A stretch of DNA of 64,000 nucleotides, from NCBI GenBank assembly GCA_963929525.1, contig CAWVJB010000011.1:4762-68761 (forward strand), read 5' to 3'. Shown here in pieces: positions 9,001-12,000 of this stretch. Every line of letters begins with the position of its first letter. Position 1 is the first letter of the stretch. Position numbers: made by a program. Origin of the DNA: Bacillota bacterium. Lineage in GTDB: Bacteria; Bacillota; Clostridia; TANB77; CAG-508.

Positions 9001-12000
9001 TCTTCTTGCAATTAATTGATTATATTGTCCGCCAAAGTCTAAGATTAAAATTAATTCATTTTCTTTCATATTTACCTCCGAAATTAAAATCATATACATA
9101 TGATATCACAATTTGTCGATAAAGTAAATAAAAACCTAATATATAGGAGAAAAACGTAACAATTCAGACATAATCATCGTAAGGAAGGTGGGATATATTA
9201 TATTTTTAAGATTCTCGGCTACCCTTCGATTCCCATTTAAGAAATTCTAAAGCAAAAACTACAACAATACCCGGAGACGGGACCTTTTATAGTTTTTGCT
9301 CAAGAATTTCTAAAATTACTCCGGTCGCATTCGAATTCTTAAAAATATAATATATCCCACCTTCCTTACGATGATTATGTCTGAATTGTTACAGAAAAGC
9401 CACGAATTATTCTGATTTTGTAAGTAAAATAAAAAATACTCTAGAAAAAGAGTATCTTTATTTTTATAGTATACCACTTGTAGGAATATAAGTATCATCT
9501 GGAGGATATACATATTCTTCATTTGGTTTATCCACTGTTTTTATTTCTGTTACTTTTACAATTGGCATATTACCATGATAATTCCCTTTCGTAATTTCAC
9601 CTGTTAATTCCACCCATGTTTCATTTGCAAAATCTTGTGCATTCTCATATTCGCAAAGAAATCCCACAATCACATAGTGAAAATCAGATGAAATAATCAT
9701 ATCTCTTGCTAATATAAATTGTGTATCTGTTAAATCTAATACTCGATATACATATCCTGTAAATTGGATTTTTACACCAACATAATCATCTATATTTTCA
9801 TGAACTGCTTTCAAGACATTCGTATAGTTTTTTGGAGAAATGATAGAAACATCACTTTGAGGCATACAACTAGAGAGCATCCTATCATTTTTCGCACCAA
9901 CAAACAATTTGATACTAACAAAAATTAAAATAATAATAATTAATAATACAATTCCTGTAAAAAAGTATTTGAAAATTTTACTACCATTGACTTTAAAATT
10001 ATATATAAACATAAAAAATCCTTTCTATCATAAGTTTTGCTATTTAAATATATGTATAAAAATCTCTATTATGCTAAAATTGCGATGATTTTGGGGATGA
10101 TTTTGGGGACGGAGCAAAAAATCATCATTTATTCTATAAAAAATCATATAAAAAGTCTTTATATAAATGATGATTTTTTGCTCCGTCCCCAAAATCACCC
10201 AAAATCACAAAATCACCCAAAATCATCGCAATTTTTAATAAATGCCTTTAAAGCACTTGATAAAAAAAGATTTTAGTGATATAGTAACAAAGTAAGAAAA
10301 GCGTGCGTTAGCGAAATCAAAGATTTCGACGCACAAATGTGAAGACTGCTACGCAGTACTTCACAAATAGAAGAAGCTTAACCTTGTTGTATACGGAAAA
10401 ATCTCATATAGGGTCAAGATAAAAGCTGATTTTTCCTATACAATGAAAAAATAAACTTAGGAGGACCGATTAACAATGGGATTATTTAAAACATATAGTG
10501 AGAAAGAAGTAAAGAGAGTAAAGCCATTAGTTTCTAAAATTAATGCACTTGAAGAAGAAATGGAAAAATTAAGTGATAGTGAATTAAGAGGTAAAACAGA
10601 ATATTTCAAAAAACAATTAGCAGATGGTAAAACTTTAGATGATATATTGCCAGAGGCTTATGCAGTCGTTAGAGAAGCTTCTAAAAGAGTTTTAGGCATG
10701 AGACACTTTGATGTACAATTAATTGGTGGTATTGTATTACACCAAGGTAGAATCGCAGAAATGAAAACAGGTGAAGGAAAAACATTGGTTGCTACATTAC
10801 CTGTATATCTAAATGCCCTTGAAGGAAAAGGCGTTCATGTTATTACTGTAAATGATTACTTGGCAAAAAGAGATAGTGAATGGATGGGAAAATTATATAA
10901 ATTTTTAGGACTATCTGTTGGTTTAGTAATTGCTGGTATGGAGCCTAAAGCAAAACAAGAAGCATACAATGCAGATGTAACATATGGTACCAATAATGAA
11001 TTTGGATTCGATTACTTAAGAGATAATATGGTTATTTACAAAGATCAATTGGTACAAAGAGGATTACATTATGCCATTGTCGATGAGATCGATAGTATTT
11101 TGATTGATGAAGCTAGAACACCATTGATTATTTCAGGTAGAGCAAATGAGTCATCTGATTTATATAAAAAAGCAGATAACTTTGTTACAAGATTAACACC
11201 AAAAGTAATTGTAGAAGAAGATGTAAAAGATTATGCACAAGCAGAAGATAATGAAAAATATGATTATATCGTAGATTTAAAAGCAAAATCTGCATCATTG
11301 ACACAAAAAGGTATCAAAAAAGCAGAAGAAGCATTTGGATTAGAAAATTTTAATGATTTAGAAAACTCAACATTAGTACACCATGTAAATCAAGCTTTAA
11401 GAGCACATGGGGTTATGAAAAAAGATATTGACTATATCGTAAAAGATGGAGAAGTATTAATTGTTGATGAATTTACAGGTCGTATCATGTATGGAAGAAG
11501 ATACAACAATGGATTACATCAAGCAATTGAAGCAAAAGAGCATGTAAAAATTGCAGATGAGTCAAAAACATTAGCAACTATCACATTCCAAAACTATTTT
11601 AGAATGTATGACAAATTATCTGGTATGACAGGTACAGCCATGACAGAAGAAGCAGAATTTGAGGAAATCTATAACTTAGATGTTGTTGAAATACCAACCA
11701 ATAAACCAATGATTCGTAAAGATGAAAATGATGTTATATATAAAAATGAAAATGCAAAATTTAGAGCAATTGTAAGAAGTATCAAAGAAAGTCATGAAAA
11801 AGGTCAACCAGTCCTAGTAGGTACAGTTTCTATTGAAAAATCTGAAAAATTAAGTAGATTATTAAAACAAGAAGGCATCAAACATGAAGTATTAAATGCG
11901 AAATATCATGAAAAAGAAGCAGAAATTGTTGCACAAGCTGGTAAGTTTGGAGCAGTAACGATTGCAACAAATATGGCAGGACGTGGTACTGATATTATTT

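Follow-up and report, generated by a model that had tools for sequence, protein, structure and literature searches.

A small palindromic mobile element of gut Clostridia with IS66-type ends and probable DNA-level maintenance of its arms

A 64,000-nucleotide stretch of DNA from a Bacillota bacterium of the class Clostridia (contig CAWVJB010000011.1, positions 4,762 to 68,761; "the window" below means this whole stretch) carries three copies of a palindromic repeat, here called c1, c2 and c3. Judging from their ends, flanks and placement, the copies are a previously undescribed small non-coding mobile element, a miniature inverted-repeat transposable element (MITE) with IS66/ISBst12-type ends. 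The account that probably explains them is a non-autonomous MITE, about 235 bp long, that depends on an IS66-family transposase acting in trans and whose arms are kept complementary by templating at the level of the DNA. What is seen here is a set of known processes in unusually clean form, not a new kind of RNA.

In this model, a DDE transposase of the IS66 family (ISBst12 group) would act in trans, recognizing the terminal 15 nt of the element, GTAACAATTCAGACC, and making 8-bp target duplications. One arm would then repeatedly template the other, through template switching of replication in the hairpin (quasipalindrome correction), through gene conversion between the inverted repeats, or through both. 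A change in one arm would be either erased or copied into the partner. Inversion of the core would result from this process as well, or else from a crossover between the arms. Now and then the process would also symmetrize an internal loop formed by two boxes, A and B, and so produce A/A' or B'/B forms. In a copy whose arms have been shortened or disrupted by insertions and deletions, correction would stop and decay would set in.

An initial annotation of the window had pointed out the three structured palindromes, and an inverted-repeat search, which was used to locate the arms, recovers all of them. The full-length copy c1 (9156-9392, 237 nt) has its A-to-B orientation on the minus strand. 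Its outer arm of 56 nt (9156-9211) is 100% complementary to the partner arm (9337-9392), and the terminal 15 nt of the outer arm, GTAACAATTCAGACA, form a terminal inverted repeat of the transposase type. Between the arms lies an asymmetric core of 125 nt (9212-9336, minus strand). It is made up of the A box at 9320-9338 and the B box at 9210-9224, together with an inner stem of 28 bp, in which a T:T mismatch is conserved, and the apical loop GTCCCGTCTCCGGGTATTGTT.

The other two copies lie on the plus strand, opposite in orientation to c1. Copy c2 (44754-44990) has an intact left end, GTAACAGTTCAAACC, and lacks the last bases of the terminal repeat at its right end. Its 53-nt arms (44757-44809 and 44935-44987) are 100% complementary and enclose a core of 125 nt (44810-44934). 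Copy c3 (47858-48051) is short-armed and decayed, with arms of 35 nt (47858-47892 and 48017-48051) that are 97% complementary, a single T:C mismatch interrupting them. The core of c3 (47893-48016) is 124 nt long, with the A box at 47891-47909 and the B box at 48004-48018; neither a terminal repeat nor a flanking duplication is recognizable in this copy. The stems had been put at 55, 52 and 29 bp, slightly short of the measured lengths. Likewise, the start given for c3 stands, while its end had been placed at 48061.

The A box, GAATTCGAATGCGACCGGA, and the B box, GGGTAGCCGAGAATC, occur three times each in the 64 kb, against an expectation of 0.01; the two motifs were found nowhere else in approximately 570 kb examined. 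Either strand forms a single long hairpin, with a folding energy z of about -23 on both. From the outside in, the fold consists of an outer stem of 53-57 bp, the asymmetric internal loop in which the A box faces the B box, the 28-bp inner stem, and an apical loop of 26 nt that contains a small CCCG/CGGG hairpin. The copies are small (194-237 bp) and no conserved open reading frame (ORF) was found in them, the ATG of the A box meeting a stop after four codons in c1 and c3. A small ORF in the core was considered and dropped, as it is not conserved.

The first line of evidence for a transposon comes from the ends. All full-length copies terminate in GTAAC...GTTAC, and GTAACAATTCAGACC is the consensus of these termini. 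It was compared with an insertion sequence on plasmid pHTA426 of Geobacillus kaustophilus that is annotated "IS66-like element ISGka4 family transposase". The consensus differs from one end of this insertion sequence, GTAACTATTCAGCCC, at two positions (13/15 identical) and from the other, GTATCTATTCAGCCC, at three; it gives only three hits in the entire 48-kb plasmid, two of which are these ends. A perfect repeat of 8 bp, GACGAGTT, borders this insertion sequence on both sides. In published descriptions, the inverted repeat of IS66 starts with GTAAGCG and is accompanied by 8-bp direct repeats (PMC11946415), and ISDge4, a member of the ISBst12 group, has the ends GTAACTGCTCAGCA and an 8-bp repeat (PMC12898284).

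The second line of evidence is the flanks. Four copies have direct repeats of 8 bp, 7/8 identical, just outside their GTAAC/GTTAC ends: c1 (GCTTTTCT / GTTTTTCT) and three copies from other contigs, L004a (ATTTTTTT / ATTTTTTA), L004b (CTCAATTT / CTCCATTT) and L009 (CCTTTGTT / CTTTTGTT). In the window, the repeats of c1 occupy 9148-9155 (AGAAAAAC on the plus strand) and 9393-9400 (AGAAAAGC on the plus strand), and they are read as a target-site duplication. Among 8-mers spaced 237 nt apart in the same DNA, a match of at least 7/8 has a frequency of 0.0015, or 0.0036 at T-rich sites. Against this empirical background, finding duplications in four of five copies has a P of about 3e-11 to 8e-10.

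The third line of evidence is the placement of the copies, since all 13 distinct members of the family are intergenic. The genes around them are variously in tandem, convergent or divergent, and the element itself may point either way. The earlier remark that the copies follow minus-strand stops is accurate for the window, where all three lie 19-71 nt past a stop, and does not extend to the wider family, in which context and orientation are arbitrary. Because IS66-type terminal repeats and 8-bp duplications occur together with entirely intergenic placement, the copies are taken to be a MITE. These features are hallmarks of MITEs, contrary to the initial annotation, which had held the pattern to be unexpected for one.

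The element resembles MITEs of the IS66 family (ISBst12 group) in the GTAA that begins its terminal repeat, in its 13/15 match to the Geobacillus element, in its 8-bp flanking duplications, and in being small, non-coding, intergenic and present in several copies. It is unlike them in its arms, which are perfect over 53-57 bp, as opposed to the imperfect 15-30 bp repeats of the insertion sequences. It is also unlike them in being palindromic as a whole, with a center that is more conserved than its ends.

The duplications also bear on another model, in which the element is a site for recombination or transposition of folded single-stranded DNA, comparable with the integron attC site or with the imperfect hairpins of IS200/IS605 and REP/RAYT systems. 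Here the unpaired bases, those of the A/B loop and the T:T mismatch, would be the recognition features, and pairing would be all that is required of the stems. Such a model accommodates stems whose sequence varies while pairing is kept, and unpaired features that are conserved. However, 8-bp duplications and IS66-type ends indicate a DDE transposase acting on duplex ends, and neither HUH/RAYT elements nor attC recombination make duplications of this kind. There are no cassette arrays and no R''/R' consensus, since the ends of the element, CTGTAAC ... GTTACGT, do not fit RYYYAAC ... GTTRRRY. The neighbors of the copies are ordinary housekeeping genes such as guaA and secA and genes of mixed strand, not cassettes. 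This model is therefore considered very improbable.

A related comparison can be made with REPINs, which are likewise extragenic, form long hairpins, commonly have a change on one side of the stem compensated on the other (PMC3116915), and decay when old. REPINs differ from the element in being moved by RAYT (HUH/Y1) transposases, in making no target duplication, and in being conserved at their ends and not in their center, whereas the element has DDE-type ends, duplications and a low copy number.

The family was delimited by several searches. One genome per species was scanned for a 19-mer, which gave 16 loci. Ten are genuine, all in metagenome-assembled genomes (MAGs) of uncultured gut Clostridia or "Eubacteriales" with 25-30% G+C; the remaining six are chance hits in high-GC genomes. 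A scan of metagenomes produced one real hit only, the partial copy L017, which is an orthologue of L012, and no family match was found in collections of plasmids and phages or in IMG/VR. A profile search with nhmmer added the diverged copy L004b and the internally deleted copy L011. The latter (L011 1002-1110) has lost the segment between the left inner stem and a point shortly before the right terminus (...GAAATTCTTA|TATGTAAC); its left arm and A box are retained, as is the terminal GTAAC. Exact matches to the A box number one or two per species-representative genome. Because only 13 copies were found, and none in approximately 150 kb from three related lineages, the family is rare, patchy and low in copy number. 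A scan of the window against Rfam gave no hit at the gathering score, and together with the empty plasmid, phage and IMG/VR searches this agrees with the earlier opinion that the family is undescribed.

An example of a locus with two copies is L004 (3704-7080), where L004a and L004b flank a 2.9-kb restriction module of McrB (AAA_5) and McrC that adjoins two cytosine-5 methylase genes. A composite transposon was considered here, and also for the copies around three genes in the window, and was rejected, each copy having its own duplication. Because L004a and L004b each carry their own 8 bp, they look like independent insertions at a defence island.

The most striking property of the element is the agreement between its arms, which the initial annotation had noticed as mirrored substitutions. 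Between c1 and c2 the arms are 77% identical, and all of the 10 substitutions and three gap columns are mirrored in the partner arm. Covariation was scored on an alignment (A3) of six full-length copies, c1, c2, L004a, L004b, L005 and L009, from four species, whose arms are 61-86% identical to one another. In this alignment 95.5% of 492 cells are paired, and 36 of the 84 pairs have changed on both sides, compared with four that have changed on one side. No measure was reached by any of 500 shuffles, and sliding the pairing partner by one to three columns leaves only three to six double changes. For the outer stem by itself, 28 pairs have changed on both sides and two on one.

The alternative to be weighed is a structured non-coding RNA, or a cis-acting hairpin in 3' untranslated regions, whose stems are kept paired by selection on RNA folding. 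Very strong covariation and a folding z of about -23 speak for this alternative, as does the conservation seen in the apical loop, the T:T mismatch and the asymmetric internal loop. In addition, one orthologous pair (L001/L014) has a core that is better conserved than the sequence flanking it. The details of the changes point elsewhere. In the five copies with perfect arms, all 278 rungs of the outer stems are Watson-Crick pairs, with no G:T and no mismatch. Double changes of the transversion type (AU<->UA, GC<->CG, AU<->CG) number about 19, compared with about 13 of the transition type. Transversion-type pair changes pass through no wobble intermediate. Indels are mirrored as well: L005 has a 3-nt deletion, L004b a 2-nt deletion and both an extra T, in each case in both arms. 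Mismatches of the inner stem are G:U on the A-to-B strand more often than A:C (about eight events to two), but the excess does not reach significance, and in the outer arms it runs the other way (3 vs 8).

Other observations on the RNA alternative come from the setting of the copies. Their orientation relative to neighboring genes is arbitrary across the 13 copies, both strands fold equally well, and the core inverts. No copy contains a site resembling a promoter or a terminator. Both c1 and c2 sit after the terminator of the upstream gene and before the promoter-like site of the downstream gene: c1 has the DUF1980 terminator on one side and the guaA promoter on the other, and c2 lies between the terminator hairpin of a 337-aa gene (44987-45030) and a promoter-like site at 44724-44696. 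When Rfam was searched by E-value instead of by gathering threshold, only chance microRNA-like hits far below threshold appeared. A structured RNA, which the initial annotation had listed first among its options, is thus quite unlikely. The option it had listed alongside, templated maintenance of a hairpin or foldback element, is the one that the evidence favors.

Further evidence for templating is provided by an internal clock. The two halves of a target duplication are identical at birth. Over the four duplications, four of 32 positions now differ, but the 168 arm rungs of c1, L004a and L004b contain no mismatch. The rate derived from the duplications predicts about six arm mismatches even if its lower confidence bound is used. 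Since the duplications have mutated and the arms have not, changes in the arms have probably been corrected in place or purged.

Copies with shorter arms behave differently. The orthologous short-armed copies L001 and L014, whose flanks are 6-10% diverged, differ by five arm substitutions that are not mirrored. In decayed arms generally, mismatches comprise three of the G:T/T:G kind, eight A:C/C:A and four others, with no bias toward an RNA strand. A fresh unmirrored change is also present in an arm of c1 in one strain (L025). Short-armed copies are not corrected. The claim that the pattern is not ordinary MITE decay fails for the older, shorter-armed copies (c3, L001, L014, L009 and L012), which show exactly such uncompensated decay.

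An assembly artefact was examined as a source of the perfect arms and was excluded. Nine independent assemblies, from short and long reads, agree on c1. Assemblers also keep single mismatches in the arms (L025, c3, L001) and the asymmetric core.

The absence of G:T pairs, the transversion flips, the mirrored indels, the mutated duplications and the lack of strand bias together argue for copying at the DNA level over selection on RNA. The arms most likely stay complementary because one is copied from the other in this way, and covariation this striking is what inverted repeats evolving in concert are expected to leave behind. Precedents exist. Template switching at inverted repeats homogenizes the arms and inverts spacers (PMC8604942), and it can create compensatory stem changes in a single event (PMC8794818; see also PMC7202029). 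In line with these reports, quasipalindrome template switching predicts the homogenization of the arms, including mirrored indels and transversions, the inversion of the spacer, and the perfection of imperfect regions. Unlike the element, it is a mechanism and not a family, and it leaves the resistance of the A/B loop and the T:T mismatch to homogenization unexplained.

One prediction of templating between the arms is that the core can be inverted. Eight metagenome contigs cover c2. In one of them, L032, the core is the exact reverse complement of that in the window (0/125 mismatches) and the arms and flanks are identical, while L033 has the orientation of the window. Judged from the contigs, the orientation in L032 should be supported by reads, because the 53-nt arms are shorter than the largest k-mer usual in such assemblies. 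For c1 and c3, a single orientation is found in all of the 8-9 contigs. A long-read assembly of another sample, with many frameshifts, scrambles the loop of c1 and shows c2 as a B'/B hybrid, which may be a consensus of mixed orientations.

Symmetrized forms of the loop occur too. L034 has the B'/B form and L004b, from a short-read MAG, the A/A' form. The latter is not an assembly error, because its A boxes have since gained mirrored changes. Both forms are products expected of template switching across the A/B loop, or of a crossover in the inner stem between orientation isomers. Five independent metagenome contigs (L017, L027, L037, L053 and L054) end inside a copy of the element, which suggests that the palindrome, or a mixture of orientations, regularly breaks assemblies.

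Inversion of the core could also mean a programmed inverton, in which a site-specific recombinase flips the 125-nt segment and so varies the expression of neighbors, for example of the operon downstream of c2 that encodes a 2573-aa protein. The exact inversion in L032 and the long-read hybrid, with its suggestion of mixed orientations, would follow from this; invertons in general are short segments between inverted repeats that natural populations carry both ways round, and the element shares this. Also in favor of a switch, the arm-proximal motif ATATTTTTAAGA is conserved in all copies, and an operon for large proteins without annotation has its promoter-like site about 30 nt downstream of c2. 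However, no recombinase was found among approximately 30 window ORFs scanned or among the called genes of orthologous contigs, and the core contains neither a promoter-like site nor coding sequence. The constant orientation of c1 and c3 also speaks against a switch, as do their positions: convergent genes surround c3, and the gene downstream of c1 is guaA, a housekeeping gene. Perfect repeats of 53-57 bp, much longer than those usual for invertons, suffice for inversion by general recombination or template switching, and terminal repeats and target duplications in a dispersed element point to a transposon. A programmed inverton is accordingly unlikely.

Several observations weigh against a templated MITE moved by an IS66-type transposase. 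The duplications are 7/8 and never 8/8 identical, they are missing from L005, and one terminus of c2 has been lost. A tblastn comparison of the pHTA426 transposase with the window and approximately 570 kb of DNA from family hosts, which consists of genome fragments only, detected no IS66-type transposase, and no longer element with the same ends was found in this DNA. On the side of mobility stands a sister species, whose DUF1980 protein is 87% identical and whose DUF1980-guaA spacer (L040-L043) is 105 nt long and without the element; c1 itself is occupied in all nine contigs of its own species. The caveat is that homology at the empty site comes to about 10 nt from the insertion point on the guaA side and is lost on the other, an alignment that fits removal of the element with or without one 8-mer and so does not verify the duplication. 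The core inversion comes from one short-read contig and a noisy long-read assembly. The comparison of L001 with L014 hints at constraint on the core in place, which a purely selfish element would not need. Finally, templating should erase the A/B asymmetry and the T:T mismatch, yet nearly all copies keep both.

These last two points concern the conservation of the core, which was measured on the five full-length copies of A/B form. Identity is 73% in the terminal 15 nt, 72% in the middle of the arm, 94.5% in the arm-proximal 15 nt and 95% in the core; within the core the B box reaches 96.5% and the loop 90%. Because neither the B box nor the loop was used to find copies, their conservation is genuine. 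The T:T mismatch of the inner stem is present in all 13 copies. Between L001 and L014, one of 125 core positions differs, compared with five of 70 in the arms, or with 11 of 190 in the arms and nearby intergenic flanks together (hand count; Fisher P about 0.02, estimated by hand). Since the asymmetry and the mismatch persist, some selection on a folded or bound form must also act.

The core and the arm-proximal 15 nt thus presumably carry a function in cis, because the core resists both drift and homogenization. Candidates would be the binding of the transposase or of a host factor, or some property that the strand has when folded. The core contains no promoter and no ORF and gives no Rfam or tRNA match. 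A pseudoknot between CCGGAG/CCGGAA of the A box and CTCCGG/TTCCGG of the loop was rejected, as the 2x2 table over 13 copies (2/3/1/7) has no covariation. An origin of the two boxes from tRNA was rejected as well: ARAGORN predicts no tRNA or tmRNA, and the string resemblance to a T-loop and D-arm is judged a coincidence.

A wider reading holds that the 125-nt core is a functional module riding on a transposon, either a platform that binds a protein of the host or of the transposon or a folded nucleic-acid signal, whose orientation is toggled by recombination between self-correcting arms. This appears rather unlikely. If true, it would make the family a set of dispersed, MITE-borne flip-flop switches and not inert selfish DNA.

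On the reading of a MITE with templated arms, the family is an unusually clean natural record of concerted evolution in a short bacterial palindrome. It holds dozens of mirrored substitutions and indels, the internal clock of the mutated target duplications, a captured spacer inversion, and both symmetrized by-products. It is also a warning for the discovery of RNA motifs, as DNA templating in a mobile element can give perfect compensatory covariation without any RNA function. For metagenomics, such elements break assemblies, and tools that seek flipped segments between inverted repeats could mistake them for invertons.

The surroundings of the copies are varied. The window has about 27% G+C and contains the housekeeping genes guaA, secA, RF-1 and a class A PBP, as well as sporulation genes; it is on these grounds chromosomal DNA from a low-GC member of the Clostridia. 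A long minus-strand cluster (35102-56700) consists mostly of genes without Pfam domains; it includes the 2573-aa ORF (35102-42823), two S24/S26-type peptidase-like proteins and a DUF2357 protein. Copy c2 lies just upstream of the promoter-like site for the genes of 40, 525 and 2573 aa, and c3 lies inside the same cluster. Gene calling includes the 40-aa ORF (MDLKDVKTGELIEFYKKFDEFLKYLEKEKQSIEKANNLNE; 44500-44622, minus strand), which is located between c2 and the 525-aa gene, and more than 20 metagenome contigs carry it unchanged.

A second and unrelated family of palindromic repeats is present at 7400-7520 and 10076-10235, and probably corresponds to the "Family A" of the initial annotation. 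Its motif GGGGACGGAGCAAAAAATCATC occurs four times as two inverted pairs, against an expectation of 0. At 10076-10235, tandem GATGATTTTGGG units are found, with arms of 38 nt that are 97% complementary.

Upstream of secA, a stretch of about 150 nt (10290-10445) holds three hairpins, for example GCGTGCGTTAGCGAAATCAAAGATTTCGACGCAC and GTGAAGACTGCTACGCAGTACTTCAC. By eye, this segment closely resembles L003 5935-6090, which lies 3' of an unrelated gene in the MAG of another species; pieces aligned by tblastx are 72-86% identical. The segment gives no Rfam hit at the gathering score, and it may be a third mobile or structured repeat family.

Downstream of secA, the window encodes a cytosine methylase and a HaeIII-type restriction endonuclease (14553-16514), which are absent from the sister species (L040 5879-9831). 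At the same place downstream of secA, other relatives (L041, L043 and L044) carry an island with a phage-type integrase.

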